The position numbers and the translations under genes were made by a program. Positions 1,601-33,154 of a stretch of DNA of 64,000 nucleotides are shown piece by piece (within the stretch, counting starts at the first letter, position 1; every line of letters begins with the position of its first letter). Origin of the DNA: an uncultured Thomasclavelia sp. (GTDB lineage Bacteria; Bacillota_I; Bacilli_A; Erysipelotrichales; Coprobacillaceae). The stretch lies in NCBI GenBank assembly GCA_910588165.1, contig CAJUOR010000001.1, positions 5,433-69,432 on the forward strand, in the 5' to 3' direction. The notes under the pieces are model-generated. The model was given only the letters and a program-made list of their open reading frames with translations, made no database searches and was not told the origin of the DNA.

Positions 1601-2095
1601 ATGAATACAGTCGCAAAATTTGAAAAAGTATCTTTTGAACAATATGCTAAAGATGTTGAAAAAGCTGATGAAATCTATGAAAATATTCAATTACCCCAAC
1701 GTGCTACGAAAGGCAGTGCCGGTTACGACTTCTATATGCCTTATGATTTAACATTAGTGCCGGGGCAAACCGCTAAAATCCCTACAGGCATTCGAGCTAA
1801 AATCGCTGATGGTTGGGTTCTATGCTTATTTCCAAGAAGCGGTTTAGGTTTCAAGTACCGCCTCCAGCTCAATAATACTGTCGGTATTATCGATGCCGAT
1901 TATTATCTTTCTGATAACGAAGGACATATCTTCGCTAAAATTACCAACGACTCTAATGAGGGTAAAACATTGACCTTAAAACAAGGGGAAGGCTTTATGC
2001 AAGGAATTTTTATGCCTTTCGGTTTAGCCGAAGATGACAATGTCCAAACCATTCGCAACGGTGGTTTTGGCAGTACAACTAAAAAAGGAGAATAA
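1601..2095 (+). CDS. dut: dUTP diphosphatase
   Basis: GSAGYDFY, PRSGLG and GIIDADY dUTPase motifs. Start moved to ATG 1601, 7 nt after the AAGGAAAGGAG RBS. Confidence 0.85.
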   Translation: MNTVAKFEKVSFEQYAKDVEKADEIYENIQLPQRATKGSAGYDFYMPYDLTLVPGQTAKIPTGIRAKIADGWVLCLFPRSGLGFKYRLQLNNTVGIIDADYYLSDNEGHIFAKITNDSNEGKTLTLKQGEGFMQGIFMPFGLAEDDNVQTIRNGGFGSTTKKGE

Positions 2096-2099
2096 ATTG

Positions 2100-2351
2100 A
2101 TGTTAGAATATAAATTTGATACCCAACTGTTGATTAGCGGCACCAATCTTTCAAAGGAAGCCATCAATGATTATATTACGCAAAATATTGAAGGTGACTG
2201 TCTTTTAGCGGTTGGTGATGATGAGTTGATTAAAATTCACTTCCACACCAATACACCTTGGAAAGTTTTGGAATATGGGGCAAGTTTAGGTGATATTTTT
2301 GATGTAGTGGTTGAAAACATGGAGCGACAAGCTCAAGGATTAAAAGGTTAG
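2100..2351 (+). CDS. Stand-alone 83-aa protein homologous to the middle domain of fatty acid kinase FakA (YloV/DAK2-fusion family)
   Basis: GDCLLAVGDDELIKIHFHTNTPWKVLEYGASLGDIFDVVVENMERQ aligns with B. subtilis YloV [59 protein letters not shown] lies 9 nt upstream of ATG 2100; a terminator follows. Confidence 0.7.
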   Translation: MLEYKFDTQLLISGTNLSKEAINDYITQNIEGDCLLAVGDDELIKIHFHTNTPWKVLEYGASLGDIFDVVVENMERQAQGLKG

Positions 2352-2357
2352 ATATAC

Positions 2358-2390
2358 AAAAAGTGGTTTTACAGAAGTAAACCACTTTTT
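2358..2390. terminator. Bidirectional Rho-independent terminator between the FakA-like mini gene and aroK
   Basis: AAAAAGTGGTTT-loop-AAACCACTTTTT perfect hairpin flanked by A and T tracts. Confidence 0.8.
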
Positions 2391-2433
2391 ATAATGTTAA
2401 GCCATCTAAATTATTTCAACTCAACAGTCTTTT

Positions 2434-2925
2434 TTAAGAAGGCAAAACCTCCAAAATTTCCTTGACTGTATTTTCAATTGTTCCGTTATTATCAACAATA
2501 GCATCAGAAAACAAGGCATATAAATCTTTTCGGGCTTCATACAAATCCAGAATTTTCTCTTTCCCCTCTTTAAGTAGCGGACGTCCTTGAATGTCCACAC
2601 CAGCCATAATCTTATCCAAATCCCGCTGTAACCAAATCACAAACCCATTTTCCTTCAAATACAACATATTGATTGCCTTTAGGACAACGCCACCACCGCA
2701 TGAGAAAATCGTATCTTCCCTATTTTTCAAAAGAAAACAGATCTCTGTTTCTTTTTCTCTGAAAAAAGGCTCACCTAAGCGAAACATCTCAGGGATACTC
2801 ATTTTAAAATAATCCGTTAAATAATCATCTAAATCAATCAACTCATAGGGTATTTTTTTGGCTAAGACTTGCGAAATCGTCGTTTTTCCACAACCGGGCA
2901 TACCTATCAAAACAATATTTTTCAT
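2434..2925 (-). CDS. aroK: Shikimate kinase
   Basis: GMPGCGKTT P-loop, 163 aa, last gene of the aro operon. Confidence 0.85.
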   Translation of the reverse strand: MKNIVLIGMPGCGKTTISQVLAKKIPYELIDLDDYLTDYFKMSIPEMFRLGEPFFREKETEICFLLKNREDTIFSCGGGVVLKAINMLYLKENGFVIWLQRDLDKIMAGVDIQGRPLLKEGKEKILDLYEARKDLYALFSDAIVDNNGTIENTVKEILEVLPS

Positions 2926-3185
2926 TTTTCCATTTCTTCTTTTTGTAAAGCTTTAGACAAATCCATCAATTCTTTTAAAAATCTTTCACAAGCTTCTTGA
3001 TATTGACGTGAAGCGCATAGATCAGTCATCAACCGCTTTTCTCTTTCCGGTTGAAAAATAGGCATCTGATGTTCCTTTTTATAACGAGCGACTTCCTTTG
3101 AAAGCTCAAGTCTTTTTTCCAATAAGTCTAGCATCTCTTTGGTAATAGCTTCAATCTCTTGACGATATTTCTCTAAATCATTCAT
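2922..3185 (-). CDS. Chorismate mutase (AroQ-type, monofunctional)
   Basis: 87 aa helical protein with an RLELSKEVARYKK-type motif. Sits between aroC and aroK with overlapping stops and starts. Confidence 0.7.
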   Translation of the reverse strand: MNDLEKYRQEIEAITKEMLDLLEKRLELSKEVARYKKEHQMPIFQPEREKRLMTDLCASRQYQEACERFLKELMDLSKALQKEEMEK

Positions 3186-4236
3186 ACATAATCTCCTTTA
3201 AATTTTCAAAATTTCCATACGTTTCCAATAACAAATCATAAATAACTAATGCCCCGCAAGCCTCTATGATAGGCAATGCCCTAAGCCCGATACAACGGTC
3301 ATGGCGTCCTTTAATTTGGATTTCTTTGACGCTTTGACTGACTGCATCATAGCTTAGTTGAGGCTTGGCAATAGAGGCGGTCGGCTTTAAATAAGTTTCA
3401 AAAACAAGTGGCATTCCCGTTGTTAAGCCTCCTAAAATCCCACCATTATGGTTGGTTGTGGTTTTCAAATTTTCATCATAACAATCATTCATTTGCGAAC
3501 CCAAACTTTCCGGCATTTGAATGGCATCACCAAACATCACGCCTTTAACTCCCGGTACGCTAAACAGTAAGTGACTTAGTCTACTTTCGACTGAATCAAA
3601 TAGCGGCTCCCCAATCCCAACCGGTAGACCATCAATCAAACATTCGATTTTTGCCCCCACTGAGTCGCCTTCTAAAGTATCTAAATAAGCAAAAACTTCT
3701 TTTGGAATCTCCGTTTCTTGATGTGATGCTGTTTTCTCACAAGGATTATATCTATCAAAAGTCAAAGCTCCGACCTGTGTTAAATGAGAGGCAACATGAA
3801 TATGACATTGAGCCAATAAATCTTTGGCAATGGCACCGGCATAAACTAAAGGTAATGTCAAGCGAGCACTGAATTGTCCGCCACCCCTGGCATCATTAAA
3901 TCCTTTATATTTGATATAAGCCGGATAGTCACTATGTGATGGGCGAAACATCTTCGGATAATCTTGTGAGCGGGTATCCCCATTTTTAAAAATAACAGTT
4001 AAGGCACTTCCTGTAAAAGTATCATGATAAAGTCCGCAAAGAACTTGAGGTTCATCTTTTTCTAAGCGTTGCGTTGTGCCTTTTTGTCCCGGAGCACGTC
4101 TTTTTAGTTGTTGTTCAATCATCTGTTGAGGATAAGCATATCCGCTAGGCAATCCTTCTATCACAACCCCAACGGCTTTTTGATGACTTTCACCAAAGAC
4201 AGTTACTTTAAAATTTTTACCAAAGCTATAACTCAT
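3178..4236 (-). CDS. aroC: Chorismate synthase
   Basis: GESHG-like start (FGESHQKAVGVVIEGLP), RPSHSDY and GGGQFSAR motifs. Confidence 0.9.
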   Translation of the reverse strand: MSYSFGKNFKVTVFGESHQKAVGVVIEGLPSGYAYPQQMIEQQLKRRAPGQKGTTQRLEKDEPQVLCGLYHDTFTGSALTVIFKNGDTRSQDYPKMFRPSHSDYPAYIKYKGFNDARGGGQFSARLTLPLVYAGAIAKDLLAQCHIHVASHLTQVGALTFDRYNPCEKTASHQETEIPKEVFAYLDTLEGDSVGAKIECLIDGLPVGIGEPLFDSVESRLSHLLFSVPGVKGVMFGDAIQMPESLGSQMNDCYDENLKTTTNHNGGILGGLTTGMPLVFETYLKPTASIAKPQLSYDAVSQSVKEIQIKGRHDRCIGLRALPIIEACGALVIYDLLLETYGNFENLKEIMYE

Positions 4237-28230: not shown

Positions 28231-28986
28231 TTATCCCTGCTTCATCATCAAACGTGCCTTTTTGGCAGCTTTTAAAATAATATTTCTCGCTTCTATGGCC
28301 TCTTGCTTTGTTGCCGGATTGACATCTTTCAATGGATAATCCATCTTAAGATTCTCATATTTAACTACTCCCATCGTATGATACGGTAAAACATCTAGGG
28401 CTTTTAAATTACCTAACTTAGCAATAAATTCACCTAGTCTTTCTAAATGTTCTATTTTATCTGTCAACCCGGGAACTAAAACATGGCGAATCCATAAAGG
28501 GACATTTTTCTCATTCAAATAGGTTGCGAAATCTAAAATAGCTTCATTAGGTTGCTTAACTAAGTTTAGATGGACTTGAGGGTCGATATGTTTAATATCT
28601 AACATCACTAAATCCGTAACTTTCATCAATCTATCAAACTTCGCCAATTTCTCAGGTTGACGGCTAAATGTAATTCCTGATGTATCTAAACACGTATGGA
28701 TATGTAATTCATGACACTTTTCAAATAATTCAATCACAAAATCAATTTGAAGCAAGGGTTCACCACCTGTACAAGTAATACCACCCTTCTTATAAAACTC
28801 GGCTTTTGTGTTATACATCTGTAATATCTCATCGACGCTCATTAACGTACCGCAATTAGGTTGCCACGTATCAGGATTGTGGCAATAGGCACAACGCATT
28901 GGACAGCCTTGAAAAAAAACCACAAATCTTATACCCGGCCCATCTACTGTTCCACAGCTCTCTGTTGAATGTATATAAGCTTTCAT
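28231..28986 (-). CDS. pflA: Pyruvate formate-lyase activating enzyme (radical SAM)
   Basis: ESCGTVDGPGIRFVVFFQGCPMRCAYCHNPDTW contains the CxxxCxxC cluster motif and the glycyl-radical activase N-terminus. Confidence 0.92.
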   Translation of the reverse strand: MKAYIHSTESCGTVDGPGIRFVVFFQGCPMRCAYCHNPDTWQPNCGTLMSVDEILQMYNTKAEFYKKGGITCTGGEPLLQIDFVIELFEKCHELHIHTCLDTSGITFSRQPEKLAKFDRLMKVTDLVMLDIKHIDPQVHLNLVKQPNEAILDFATYLNEKNVPLWIRHVLVPGLTDKIEHLERLGEFIAKLGNLKALDVLPYHTMGVVKYENLKMDYPLKDVNPATKQEAIEARNIILKAAKKARLMMKQG

Positions 28987-29021
28987 TCCAATCACCACCT
29001 ACTATTATTTTATCACAAATT

Positions 29022-29054: not shown

Positions 29055-29354
29055 CTATTTTTCCATTTCTGCCACAATGTCTGCGAAAATTTTAGCTGCA
29101 TTGAAGTTTGCGAAATCTTCTTCGGAAACTAAAATAACTTTCTTATTAGGATCCATGGCTTTAATTTTGTCATAAGAACCTTTTAACTGTGGTGTTACTA
29201 ACACAACATCAGCTAATTTAATTGAATGTTCAACCGCATGTTCAGAAGCTGACCATACCATAACATCATTTCTTTTACGAGATGCTGCATCTTTTAATTT
29301 TGAAGCGAATAGTGTAGATGTTACACCTGCTAAGCAACATAATAAAATTCTCAT
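29055..29354 (-). CDS. PTS EIIB component, lactose/cellobiose family (orphan)
   Basis: MRILLCCLAGVTSTLFASKLK has the N-terminal phospho-Cys loop. 99 aa. No EIIA or EIIC gene nearby. Confidence 0.75.
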   Translation of the reverse strand: MRILLCCLAGVTSTLFASKLKDAASRKRNDVMVWSASEHAVEHSIKLADVVLVTPQLKGSYDKIKAMDPNKKVILVSEEDFANFNAAKIFADIVAEMEK

Positions 29355-29407: not shown

Positions 29408-29436
29408 TGAAAAGGTGCCAAAGCACCTTTTTTCAT
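29408..29436 (-). terminator. Hairpin after the 80-aa glycyl-radical domain gene
   Basis: AAAAGGTGC-caaa-GCACCTTTTTT palindrome. Confidence 0.6.
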
Positions 29437-29447
29437 CAAATCATTGC

Positions 29448-29690
29448 TTACATTGATTGGTGGAATGTACGTGCAATTACGTCATCTTGTTGTTCTTTTG
29501 TTAATTTAACAAAGTTAACTGCATAACCTGAAACACGAATAGTTAATTGAGGATATTTTTCAGGGTGTTTTTGAGCATCTAATAATGTATCTTTGTTTAA
29601 TACATTAACATTTAAGTGATGTCCGCCTTTTTCAGCATAGGCATCTAACATTTCTACTAAATTTTCAACTTGTTGTTTACTTGTTGACAT
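29448..29690 (-). CDS. Free-standing glycyl-radical domain protein (GrcA-like; equals the C-terminal domain of PFL)
   Basis: [59 protein letters not shown] carries the RVSGYAV glycyl-radical fingerprint. Own RBS AAGGAGAG upstream of the ATG. Confidence 0.85.
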
Positions 29691-29708
29691 AAATCTCTCT
29701 CCTTTTCG

Positions 29709-29915
29709 TTAATATAAGTCATCGTCGTCCATTGGCAAATTTGGAATCTTACAAGCGGTATCTCCGCTATCACAATCCATTTTTGATACAATGTTGACTT
29801 CATCTACTTGTAGCTTGCCGGGGGTATTGACCTTAACATTGATATGTCCTGCACCCTGTGCCATATTTTGATCCATCATTTTGATGAATGCTTCAATATC
29901 ATCTTTCTTTGTCAT
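29709..29915 (-). CDS. 68-aa protein, degenerate partial paralog of the start of the glycyl-radical domain, with a Cys-containing acidic tail
   Basis: DIEAFIKMMDQNMAQGAGHINVKVNTPGKL parallels [30 protein letters not shown] of the next ORF. No RVxG motif. Tail is MDCDSGDTACKIPNLPMDDDDLY. RBS is weak, so expression is uncertain. Confidence 0.5.
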   Translation of the reverse strand: MTKKDDIEAFIKMMDQNMAQGAGHINVKVNTPGKLQVDEVNIVSKMDCDSGDTACKIPNLPMDDDDLY

Positions 29916-29929
29916 CTTAAGACTTCTTT

Positions 29930-31996
29930 CTATTCATCAATTTTAATTGAATCGATATCTAAATCACCGGCAAATACTTGGTCATCTTTACCTAAAGCAT
30001 CCGGGATTACTGTAAATGTGTTTGAGATACCATCTTGTGCATCTTTGAATGGTAATTTAGCAACTGAAGCTAATGATGAAATAGCACCATGACTATCTCT
30101 ACCATGCATTGGGTTTGCACCAGGAGCAAATGGCTGTCCGCCTTTTCTACCATCAGGTGTATTACCTGTTGCTTTACCATAAACAACGTTAGAAGTGATA
30201 GTTAAGATTGAAGTTGTAGGTAAGCTTTCTCTGTAAGTGTGGTGAGAACGTACCATATCCATGAATGTTTCAACTAACCAAGCAGCAATTTCATCTGCTC
30301 TATCATCATCGTTACCGTATTTAGGGAAATCGCCTTCTACTTCGTAATCAACAACAACGCCATCTTCATCTCTGATACATTTTACTTTAGCGTATTTGAT
30401 TGCGGATAATGAGTCAGTTACAACTGATAAGCCGGCAATACCTGTAGCGAAATAACGTTTAACTTCTCTATCATGTAAAGCCATTTGAATTCTTTCGTAA
30501 GCATATTTATCATGCATATAATGAATGATGTTCAAAGCATTAACGTAAACGCCTGCTAACCAAGACATCATATCAACATATTTAGACTTAACATCTTCGA
30601 AATCTAAGTAGTCACCTTCTACCGGACGGTATTTAGGACCAACTTGTTTCTTAGTTTTTTCATCGATACCGCCGTTGATAGCGTATAATAAACATTTAGC
30701 TAAGTTAGCACGAGCTCCGAAGAATTGCATTTCTTTACCAACACGCATTGAAGATACACAACAAGCAATTGCATAGTCATCACCGTGTGTTACACGCATC
30801 AAATCATCGTTTTCATATTGAATTGATGAAGTTTCGATAGACATCTTTGCACAGTATGATTTGAATCCGATTGGTAAACGTGTAGACCATAAAACAGTCA
30901 TATTAGGTTCCGGTGCAGTTCCTAAGTTTGTCAATGTATGCAAATATCTGAATGAAGTTTTGGTAATCATGTGTCTACCATCAACACCGACACCACCGAT
31001 TGATTCAGTTACCCAAGTTGGATCGCCGGCAAAGATAGCATTGTAATCAGGTGTTCTCGCAAATTTAACGATTCTTAATTTCATGATGAAATGGTCGATA
31101 AATTCTTGAATTTGTTCTTCTGTGAAAACTCCGTTTTTCAAATCTCTTTCGACATAAATATCAATGAATGTTGACGTACGTCCTAAAGACATAGCCGCAC
31201 CATTTTGCTCTTTAACAGCTCCTAAGTAACCGAAGTATAACCATTGGATAGCTTCTTGAGCATTAGTTGCAGGTTTAGAAATATCGCAGCCGTATTTTGC
31301 AGCCATTTCTTTTAATTCACCTAAAGCTCTGATTTGTTCACTTAATTCTTCACGTAAACGAATGTTAGCTGAAGTCATTCTGGTTTGTGAAGTTGCAAAT
31401 TGATTCTTTTTATCTTCAATCAATTTATCAACACCGTATAAAGCGACACGACGGTAGTCACCGATAATACGACCACGTCCGTAACCATCTGGTAAACCGG
31501 TAATGATGTGGCTTGAACGACATGCTCTGATTTCCGGTGTATAAACATCAAATACACCTTGGTTATGAGTTTTTCTGTATTCTCTGAAAATATAAGAAAT
31601 TTCAGGATCTACTTTATATCCGTTTGTTTCGCAAGCTTGTTCCGCAATACGAATACCGCCAAAAGGTTGTAATGATCTTTTAAAAGGTTTGTCTGTTTGT
31701 AACCCAACAATTTTTTCTTTACTGCTATCTAAGTACCCAGCATCATGGCTTGTCAAAGTAGATACAATTTTTGTATCCATGTCTAAGACACCGCCGGCTT
31801 CTCTTTCCTGCTTGGTCAAATTCATGATTTGATCCCATAAGTCTTTAGTTGCCTGTGTTGGTCCGGCTAAGAAAGCATCGTCCCCATCATAAGGCGTATA
31901 GTTTAATTGGATAAAGTCTCTGAGGTCAACATCTTTGTTCCATTTACCCGGGCGGAAGCCTTCCCAGGCGTCATTCCATTTTTCTCTAAAAGTCAT
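29930..31996 (-). CDS. pflB: Pyruvate formate-lyase catalytic core (formate C-acetyltransferase) lacking the C-terminal glycyl-radical domain
   Basis: 688 aa with strong PFL collinearity, including the active-site ACCVS Cys-Cys. Ends ...[22 protein letters not shown], where canonical PflB continues into the radical domain. Confidence 0.9.
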
Positions 31997-32203: not shown

Positions 32204-32258
32204 TCAAACATTATAATATTATATTCTTACATGTTGATTTAACGGTCTTTATGGTGGA

Positions 32259-32285
32259 CAAAAAAAGAAGGTTTACAACCTCCTT
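32259..32285 (-). terminator. Terminator of the EIIB-like membrane protein gene
   Basis: Minus strand AGGAGGTT-gta-AACCTTCT followed by TTTTTTT. Confidence 0.65.
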
Positions 32286-32317
32286 TGATTACTTATTAAA
32301 TGTCTATTTTGCTTGTC

Positions 32318-32659
32318 TTAACTTAATTCCTGACTGATTTCGCTTGCCAATGCCTCACTGGCTTTTCCGAAAATCACCGTCAATTTATCTTTAGAAACAA
32401 CAATCCCACTTGCACCTAAAACTTGCAGATTCTCACTACTTGCCTTTTGGACATTATCTAATATAAAAATAACCTTTGAACCATTGGCACTCACAGACTT
32501 AATGTTAGCTTTTCCTCCTAAAGCCTCACATAAGCGAACTAAATCAATCCCGCTTTTCACAACTTTTTTTCTTGACGTCTTGGCATGGGATAAATAATAC
32601 CAAATGCTTAAAGCTATAATCACAACTGCAACAATACCTATGACAATATAATTATTCAT
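32318..32659 (-). CDS. Membrane-anchored PTS EIIB(Glc)-like domain protein lacking the phospho-Cys
   Basis: N-terminal TM (IVIGIVAVVIIALSIWYYL), then LCEALGGKANIKSVSANGSKVIFIL, matching the EIIB-Glc pattern LGGxxNIxxxxxCxTRLR with C-TRLR replaced. Start set at MNNY after a GGAGG RBS. Confidence 0.6.
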   Translation of the reverse strand: MNNYIVIGIVAVVIIALSIWYYLSHAKTSRKKVVKSGIDLVRLCEALGGKANIKSVSANGSKVIFILDNVQKASSENLQVLGASGIVVSKDKLTVIFGKASEALASEISQELS

Positions 32660-32728
32660 GATTTTATCCTCCGAAATCTTTTCTTTTTTTAAACAAATAT
32701 AGTATACTATATTTTGAGGTGATTTCCT

Positions 32729-33154
32729 ATGAAAATTATCAAAGCCTATACACAAAAACACTTTTTTGAAGCTATGATGATTAGAGGCAGAGTCTTTGTC
32801 GATGAACAACATGTCCCTTCATCACTTGAAATAGATGAACTTGACCAAAGCTGCTTACATATTTTATTATACGATGACATGAATCTGCCTAAAGCTGTCT
32901 TACGTCTTATCGAATATGAAGATTATTTTAAAGTCGGACGCGTCGCTGTCTTAAAGGAAAACCGACAACAAGGCTATGGCAAAAAACTTATGTTAGGTAT
33001 CGAAAATTTAGATACGGTTAAGGCAAAAGGTATGCTTAAGCTCGATGCTCAAGTAAGTGCAATTGATTTTTATCGAGCCCTCGGTTATACAATTGAAGAA
33101 GAACCGTTTGAAGAGGCCGGCATCATGCACTGCCATGCCTATAAAAAGCTATGA
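32729..33154 (+). CDS. GNAT family N-acetyltransferase
   Basis: RQQGYGKKLM acetyl-CoA-binding motif, 141 aa. Stop overlaps the start of the FtsW/RodA gene. Confidence 0.7.
   Translation: MKIIKAYTQKHFFEAMMIRGRVFVDEQHVPSSLEIDELDQSCLHILLYDDMNLPKAVLRLIEYEDYFKVGRVAVLKENRQQGYGKKLMLGIENLDTVKAKGMLKLDAQVSAIDFYRALGYTIEEEPFEEAGIMHCHAYKKL

Follow-up and report, generated by a model that had tools for sequence, protein, structure and literature searches.

The 64,000-nucleotide (nt) stretch of DNA analysed here (the window; contig CAJUOR010000001.1, positions 5,433 to 69,432, from an uncultured Thomasclavelia sp.) encodes a pyruvate formate-lyase (PFL) in separate pieces. The catalytic core, a 688-amino acid (aa) PflB, lacks the C-terminal glycyl radical domain (GRD) with its RVSGY motif. 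This domain is encoded separately as the 80-aa protein GrcA3, with a 68-aa open reading frame (ORF68) between the two and the gene for the PFL-activating enzyme, pflA, nearby. We are confident that the locus specifies a functional split PFL, in which GrcA3 acts in trans. Taken as a whole, it is probably an obligately multi-part enzyme whose radical subunit can be exchanged, with ORF68 serving either as a stand-in for the GRD in its slot or as a clamp.

A first-pass annotation, made from the sequence alone, had identified the core as a PflB that retains the ACCVS active-site cysteines and terminates before the radical domain, and our analysis bore this out. The core matched the Pfam family PFL-like (PF02901, E = 6.5e-218) and the NCBIfam model TIGR01255 (1121 bits, cut-off 994), covering only positions 1-666 of 744 in the latter profile. 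The adjacent cysteines of the active site are present (IACCVS; Cys411/412 of the core, C418 and C419 in Escherichia coli PFL), and the core also keeps the arginine segments that bind pyruvate. Comparison with solved structures aligned core residues 4-675 with residues 4-681 of E. coli PFL. Beyond ALGKDD, which lies at about E. coli residue 681, the core polypeptide runs on for 16 residues, with an acidic tail and then a TAG stop codon. In E. coli terms, the natural core thus comprises residues 1-681 plus a 13-residue tail. The tail pattern (V/I/L)FxG(D/E)(L/I)(D/E)(I/V/L)D after ALGKDD is kept in all GRD-less cores (29930..29977, minus strand, in the window), with F674 and G676 nearly invariant (alignment A6), and its alternation of acidic and hydrophobic residues resembles an amphipathic strand. 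Two apparently longer cores in the public data, P0072 (805 aa) and P0078 (821 aa), were set aside because a stretch of about 120 residues is exactly repeated in tandem within each of them, most likely through misassembly of the public contigs.

The missing domain lies where the first-pass annotation had placed it, in a reading frame of its own, 239 nt downstream of the core and in a different frame. GrcA3 carries the radical motif RVSGY, with Gly55 as the radical glycine, and matched the second half of the Pfam Gly_radical domain (positions 49-106 of 106, E = 6e-24). It passes the NCBIfam model NF038360, 'GrcA3' (165.9 bits, cut-off 158), and fails those for GrcA (TIGR04365, 100.3 vs 170) and GrcA2 (NF008341, 113.1 vs 145). 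GrcA3 corresponds to about residues 680-759 of E. coli PFL, with its residues 19-80 aligning with 698-759. The best match in the PDB was E. coli YfiD (6owr, E = 6e-25), in which residues 59-126 align with GrcA3 residues 12-79; the 80-aa protein has no counterpart of the disordered stretch of about 60 residues with which YfiD begins. Across the family, 49 of the 80 positions are invariant. Together, the core and GrcA3 make up a whole PFL, cut just past ALGKDD, as had been proposed for the 688-aa and 80-aa products.

The first-pass annotation had weighed a recently disrupted pflB as the alternative to a functional enzyme of separate polypeptides, and had called for a comparison with relatives. 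The exact proteins of the window were found on public contigs (31 for the core, 215 for ORF68 and 291 for GrcA3), and the order of the genes for the 688-, 68-, 80-, 99- and 251-aa proteins was assembled from at least four unrelated sequencing runs. A scan with an ORF68 profile, using one genome per species, returned 36 loci, and in 33 of them (L001-L033) ORF68 lies directly before GrcA3. In these loci, a PflB ending at the same place precedes ORF68 wherever the contig extends upstream, and pflA usually follows. They belong to Lachnospiraceae and to Coprobacillaceae/Erysipelotrichaceae, one of the latter being from the complete genome of the cultured isolate Massilimicrobiota timonensis, with identities to the window proteins of 76-94% for the core, 74-94% for GrcA3 and 33-68% for ORF68. 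Searching with the core added two more cultured isolates with this triad, Beduini massiliensis and Tannockella kyphosi. For 274 locus pairs with a core dS of 0.15-1.5, the ratio of nonsynonymous to synonymous substitution rates (dN/dS) had medians of 0.12 (core), 0.25 (ORF68) and 0.14 (GrcA3); all three are under purifying selection. Among the 120 best homologues of the core from a collection of 5.8 billion proteins (79-94% identity), 119 lack a GRD.

The same arrangement in independent assemblies and in many species, the purifying selection and the near-universal absence of the GRD from close homologues show that the split is no artefact and did not arise by a recent disruption of pflB. That last possibility is ruled out by the many independent assemblies and by conservation across two families, and a functional PFL made of separate polypeptides is the reading that these data favor. 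The claim of an intact pflA also stood: its product exceeds the TIGR02493 cut-off, and the gene lies nearby in most related loci.

The arrangement of the three genes was compared across 26 loci. Seven of the nine possible frame relations among the core, ORF68 and grcA3 occur, the intergenic gaps range from -1 to 26 nt, and the stop codons are TAA or TAG. Every grcA3 starts with ATG, as does ORF68 in 25 of the 26 loci, the ORF68 of L037 starting with TTG. The strong ribosome-binding site reported before the 80-aa gene was confirmed as the Shine-Dalgarno sequence AAGGAG, and in 23 of the 26 loci grcA3 has such a sequence of its own, at least 5 nt long (AAGGAG or GGAGG type) and at a spacing of 6-10 nt, which suggests efficient and independent translation of grcA3. 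The start codon of ORF68 lies -1 to 20 nt past the stop codon of the core; no clear Shine-Dalgarno sequence is present on its 5' side in the window, and none is recognisable in 13 of the 26 loci. The closeness of its start to the core stop codon and the frequent absence of a Shine-Dalgarno sequence suggest that ORF68 is translationally coupled to the core. In the window ORF68 and grcA3 are in the same frame, with TAA and 18 nt between them; since other species show other frame relations, this agreement is a coincidence.

ORF68 belongs to a family for which there is no Pfam or NCBIfam model. Its 50 close homologues are all about 68 aa long. A profile search of 1.84 billion representative proteins returned at least 150 members at E ≤ 0.001, each representing a separate 50%-identity cluster and nearly all 55-85 aa long. 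In the three loci found through distant relatives (L041-L043), ORF68 lies directly 5' of a GrcA3 of 76-80 aa (Gly_radical). Of 141 family members, 88 weakly matched the GrcA3 hidden Markov model, and HHalign aligned ORF68 residues 1-32 with GrcA3 residues 1-33 (probability 96.4%, E = 1.4e-9). Judged by these alignments, the N-terminal half of ORF68 is a paralogue of the start of the radical domain, consisting of a helix and a GxGH(I/M)NVxV strand that corresponds to beta10. One further match to the ORF68 profile, over 26 residues in a Gammaproteobacteria metagenome-assembled genome (L035, E = 1e-4), is weak and probably spurious; that locus contains no PFL core, GrcA3 or pflA.

In its C-terminal half, ORF68 has a Cys-loop (MDCDSGDTACKIPNL) and then an acidic tail. 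Across the family this two-Cys loop has the consensus DCxxGxxACx(V/I)P(T/N)L..G(I/L)D. Cys55 is invariant, D15, H24, C48, A54 and P58 are at least 90% conserved, and 140 of the 141 members contain at least two Cys residues and the motif C-x(1,2)-P-[TN]. The distance from the strand His to the motif Cys has a median of 31 residues in the family, and that from the His to Gly55 in GrcA3 is 30. The radical-glycine motif RVxG[FWY] is absent from ORF68. We considered CDSGD as a degenerate RVSGY and rejected it, since its Gly is not conserved in the wider family and the HHalign alignment covers the N-terminal half only. An AlphaFold model of ORF68 built with 141 sequences (predicted local distance difference test score, pLDDT, 70.6) contains a helix at residues 2-19 and strands at 24-27 and 40-43. 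A Foldseek search of the PDB with this model gave no match, and a search of PDB sequences with the ORF68 profile returned nothing significant.

The Cys-loop also occurs fused to the core. In some cores the acidic linker leads into a Cys-rich tail (e.g. ...GDIDVDLDCGPGDTACKIPNLMEGLDRE; ...ECGNQACNIPNIMESIDNE; ...GCCEGNVCGSDEN; ...DCACCEPNLSVDEAE), and in all five such loci (L034, L036, L040, L045 and L046) GrcA3 comes next and ORF68 is absent. Where the core tail lacks Cys, ORF68 comes next and GrcA3 after it (the window, L001-L033, L037-L039 and L044). No exception was found among the sampled loci, each of which has one Cys-loop, free or fused. The first-pass annotation had treated the 68-aa product as optional, a view that the presence of a Cys-loop in every sampled locus does not support. 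In a neighbour-joining tree of the cores, the Cys-tailed and ORF68-type cores are interleaved, and the Cys-loop has therefore probably changed repeatedly between being fused and being free. No visible difference separates the GrcA3 sequences of two-part and three-part loci. ORF68, or the Cys-loop that it carries, is in our view quite likely a functional part of the system.

We propose that the 688-aa core forms the ten-stranded barrel with its Cys-Cys site. Three elements are missing from it, namely beta10, the Gly loop and the C-terminal helix, and GrcA3 would be precisely the piece that provides them. PflA would install the radical on Gly55, and GrcA3 would dock non-covalently in the core, supplying beta10 and bringing the Gly loop beside the active-site cysteines. 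Because the radical carrier is small and separately and strongly translated, we infer that an oxygen-cleaved GrcA3 could be swapped cheaply, without remaking the 77-kDa core. ORF68 would be an integral third component, combining the docking elements of the GRD (helix and beta10-like strand) with a two-Cys loop. It may act as a radical-dead stand-in, capping the empty GRD slot when no intact GrcA3 is bound, and its cysteines possibly have a redox role. In the sister lineages, the Cys-loop is tethered directly to the core C-terminus, and docking elements would thus be unneeded.

Both a stand-in and a clamp fit the data. We tentatively prefer the stand-in, a plug for the empty slot, at somewhat less than even chances; it accounts for the presence of docking elements only when the loop is untethered, for the matching spacing, and for the unchanged GrcA3 across the systems. 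The clamp or adaptor would bind together with GrcA3 and hold or recruit the radical domain on the core. It would then be a natural, separately encoded equivalent of two E. coli elements, PFL residues 696-733 and the YfiD N-terminal region, both required for YfiD to bind tightly and for the radical to be installed efficiently. In oxygen-cleaved PFL, YfiD binding is reported to depend critically on residues 696-733, with a contribution from the disordered YfiD N-terminus, and tPFL without these residues binds YfiD weakly (PMC8683613; PMC13450708). The N-terminal half of ORF68 is homologous to this region (helix and beta10), GrcA3 itself having no YfiD-like N-terminal extension. Translational coupling to the core would fit a stoichiometric subunit, and the permanent tethering of the Cys-loop to the core in the two-part loci also speaks for a clamp. 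The two-part systems, however, have no second copy of the helix and beta10, so the duplicated docking element is not needed for GrcA3 function. GrcA3 is moreover alike in two-part and three-part loci, with no sign of an ORF68-specific surface, and the canonical PFL barrel has a single beta10 slot. We regard the clamp as somewhat less likely than the stand-in.

The stand-in can be elaborated into a three-component enzyme with a disposable 80-aa radical subunit and a family of GRD mimics, either free (ORF68) or fused to the core as a Cys-loop tail. The invariant Cys would replace the radical Gly, and the mimic would reversibly fill the radical-domain slot of the core as an oxygen- or redox-responsive cap, which shields the active-site cysteines and gates the exchange of damaged radical subunits. 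We hold this full version to be doubtful.

Several observations weigh against the proposed multi-part enzyme and its GRD-like third component. We infer the 'obligate' character of the multi-part state, and a full-length pflB may be present elsewhere in the genome. In E. coli, the absence of residues 696-733 weakened both YfiD binding and radical installation (PMC8683613), so a bare core with a free GRD may be inefficient, which would also fit a clamp role. HHalign detected no homology between the C-terminal half of ORF68 and the Gly loop, and the suggested equivalence of Cys and Gly is drawn from spacing alone. The AlphaFold model of ORF68 by itself is of just moderate confidence and shows the Cys-loop as coil. 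The model of a Cys-tailed core (P0156) is poor, with a pLDDT of 65 and below 40 in the tail, too low to place the tail.

There is also one unsplit close relative, P0118, a 748-aa full-length PFL at positions 1611..3857 of a 4.6-kb Logan contig (L051), in the same chromosomal context. This locus is mosaic, though: identity of P0118 to the window core is about 90-95% for residues 1-500 but falls to 46-72% for residues 501-650, and for the pflA downstream of it the figure is 46%, the 3' part of the PFL and pflA deriving from a distant PFL. Either recombination has 'repaired' the split here, or the contig is a chimeric assembly.

GrcA3 could instead be just a spare part for a full-length PflB encoded elsewhere, the truncated core being a secondary or back-up scaffold or non-functional. 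NCBIfam and PGAP use the name 'autonomous glycyl radical cofactor GrcA3', and no second PFL was found in the 64-kb window, which is a small part of a genome. A spare-part role is at odds with the locus itself, where the adjacent PflB is GRD-less, in the window as in every related locus. Purifying selection on the truncated core is strong (dN/dS 0.12). This core lies in a conserved housekeeping context near pflA, scores above the PFL equivalog cut-off and keeps the Cys-Cys site and the substrate-binding segments, and essentially all of its close homologues are truncated alike. A core without a GRD cannot be active alone, and its conservation therefore implies use together with GrcA3. We consider the spare-part explanation improbable.

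Recoding of the three frames into one chain (by read-through, frameshifting or bypassing), a sequencing or assembly artefact, or recent pseudogenisation can be dismissed as having almost no likelihood, since the shared frame of ORF68 and grcA3 with only TAA and 18 nt between them, the one feature that suggests a single chain, is set against the varied frames, gaps and stop codons of the 26 loci, the separate start codons and the Shine-Dalgarno sequence of grcA3, the conservation of the intervening ORF68 as a protein, an Rfam scan of the whole window in which no family (intron or frameshift element) reached threshold, and identical sequence across many independent assemblies.

The genes of the locus lie on the minus strand of the window in the order pflB core, ORF68, grcA3, hairpin, phosphotransferase system (PTS) IIB gene and pflA. 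Their coordinates and those of the flanking elements are as follows.

Table 1. Features of the split PFL locus, in window positions
Feature	Position	Strand	Basis or remark
Terminator-like hairpin belonging to the gene upstream of pflB	32286..32264		
Promoter-like site TCAACA-16-TATAAT, 5' of the pflB core	32210..32237	-	Consensus scan, weak evidence
pflB core, 688 aa	29930..31996	-	PF02901, TIGR01255, alignment with E. coli PFL
ORF68, 68 aa	29709..29915	-	Starts 14 nt past the core stop codon
Shine-Dalgarno sequence AAGGAG of grcA3	29699..29704	-	8 nt before ATG, read from sequence
grcA3, 80 aa	29448..29690	-	NF038360, Gly_radical
Hairpin AAAGGTGC-TTTG-GCACCTTT and T-rich sequence, directly 3' of grcA3	29411..29430	-	-17.5 kcal/mol, z-score -4.1 vs shuffles
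PTS lactose/cellobiose-type IIB gene, 99 aa, between grcA3 and pflA	29055..29354	-	
pflA, PFL-activating radical S-adenosylmethionine enzyme, 251 aa	28231..28986	-	TIGR02493, 298.6 bits (cut-off 231.75)

The hairpin directly 3' of grcA3 is likely an intrinsic terminator or attenuator of the pflB-orf68-grcA3 transcript, judging by its predicted stability and T-rich flank; the consensus terminator scan did not call it. Promoter-like sites were no more numerous in the region than in shuffled sequences by the consensus scan. The mechanical ORF for pflA starts at a GTG at 28998 and encodes 255 aa. The ATG at 28986 is most likely the true start, because gene callers and hundreds of contigs carry the 251-aa form.

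The PTS IIB gene also lies between grcA3 and pflA in L003, L007, L008, L011 and L027, and in L026 it lies just 3' of pflA. In other relatives pflA directly follows grcA3, and the IIB gene is a few kb away or was not detected. On the 5' side of pflB, a mechanical ORF of 164 aa (32318..32812, minus strand) extends into the beginning of an oppositely oriented GNAT acetyltransferase gene (32729..33154, plus strand); the gene callers' version of this ORF is 113 aa long and has no Pfam match.

PFL, the archetypal glycyl radical enzyme, turns pyruvate and CoA into acetyl-CoA and formate by way of a glycyl radical, a central fermentation step in gut anaerobes. In the literature that we could search, its radical domain is described solely within the catalytic chain, and YfiD/GrcA appears there as a spare for emergencies. 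If a clade of gut Coprobacillaceae/Erysipelotrichaceae and Lachnospiraceae provides the radical domain only in trans, the spare-part arrangement would be the normal state of the enzyme. The maintenance of the split layout by selection in many species suggests that the oxygen-sensitive part is meant to be exchangeable, and should the GRD-mimic reading be true, it would constitute a new strategy for PFL oxygen tolerance in abundant gut Firmicutes.

The locus also offers a natural system for two questions raised by work on E. coli: how a free radical domain is recognized, activated and inserted, and what the beta10/696-733 element and the YfiD N-terminus contribute. ORF68 and its fused Cys-loop counterpart represent a widespread, unannotated family, with a clear, testable link to the radical-domain process. 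Automated annotation labels the core as 'formate C-acetyltransferase' and ORF68 as 'hypothetical', and metabolic reconstructions and heterologous expression based on such annotation would fail unless all parts are included.

Part of this system is already known. The 80-aa protein has been named by NCBI curators and is a member of NF038360, 'autonomous glycyl radical cofactor GrcA3', as are homologues that NCBI names likewise. The family name implies a spare part. Our literature searches found no paper with the term 'GrcA3' and none on a naturally split PFL, a GRD-less partner PflB or ORF68, and a review of glycyl radical enzymes from June 2026 covers nothing of this kind beyond the spare-part role of YfiD (PMC13450708). 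The part that appears to be undescribed is ORF68 and the Cys-loop.

The closest solved relatives of the core are two very recent PDB entries titled 'Formate acetyltransferase', 38la_A (687 aa) and 38lb_A (739 aa), with a best match of 1143 bits compared with 1022 bits for E. coli PFL (1h16). Both lack a GRD, as neither was matched by the GrcA3 query, and the 38lb tail contains Cys (...ALGKSGNVMFGECDMCEMKELDD; the tail is also given as ...GECDMCEMKELDD). PDB searches with GrcA3 and with the ORF68 profile found no GRD-like or ORF68-like chain in these entries, and we found no associated paper. Such enzymes are evidently already under study by someone, which tempers the novelty of the split PFL.

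Small Cys-containing subunits encoded beside the catalytic subunit are known from other glycyl radical enzymes, namely the beta and gamma subunits of benzylsuccinate synthase and the gamma subunit of 4-hydroxyphenylacetate decarboxylase, and have been reported to influence the radical domain or thiyl-radical formation. One paper (PMC12590467) bears the title 'Accessory Subunit Regulates Thiyl Radical Formation in Benzylsuccinate Synthase'. Those subunits bind a [4Fe-4S] cluster through four Cys residues and are unrelated to the GRD, whereas ORF68 has two or three Cys residues and an N-terminal half paralogous to the GRD. PDB profile, Foldseek and family-model searches detected no homology between ORF68 and these subunits.

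The nearest known counterparts of GrcA3 are E. coli GrcA/YfiD (PDB 6owr), which acts with PflB, and phage T4 Y06I. Like GrcA3, these are small free radical domains with the RVSGY motif; they are activated by the PFL activase and can provide the Gly radical to the PFL body in trans. In E. coli, PflB is full-length and YfiD rescues only damaged or inactive enzyme, whereas the PflB adjacent to GrcA3 never has a GRD. YfiD has 127 aa and a disordered N-terminus of 60 residues, while GrcA3 has 80 aa and starts at the helix just past ALGKDD, and the window operon encodes a third protein, ORF68, in addition. GrcA3 is at odds with the defining biology of GrcA/YfiD, as it has no full-length partner at the locus and no long N-terminus, and scores below the GrcA cut-off.

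An engineered E. coli pair shows that a split PFL can work: tPFL(1-695) together with YfiD, once activated, was as active in vitro as the wild type (Andorfer et al. 2021, J Biol Chem, PMC8683613). The cut in that construct is nearly the same as the one in the natural core. The engineered system is artificial, with poor YfiD binding and activation, whereas the natural system has co-evolved partners together with ORF68 or its Cys-loop.

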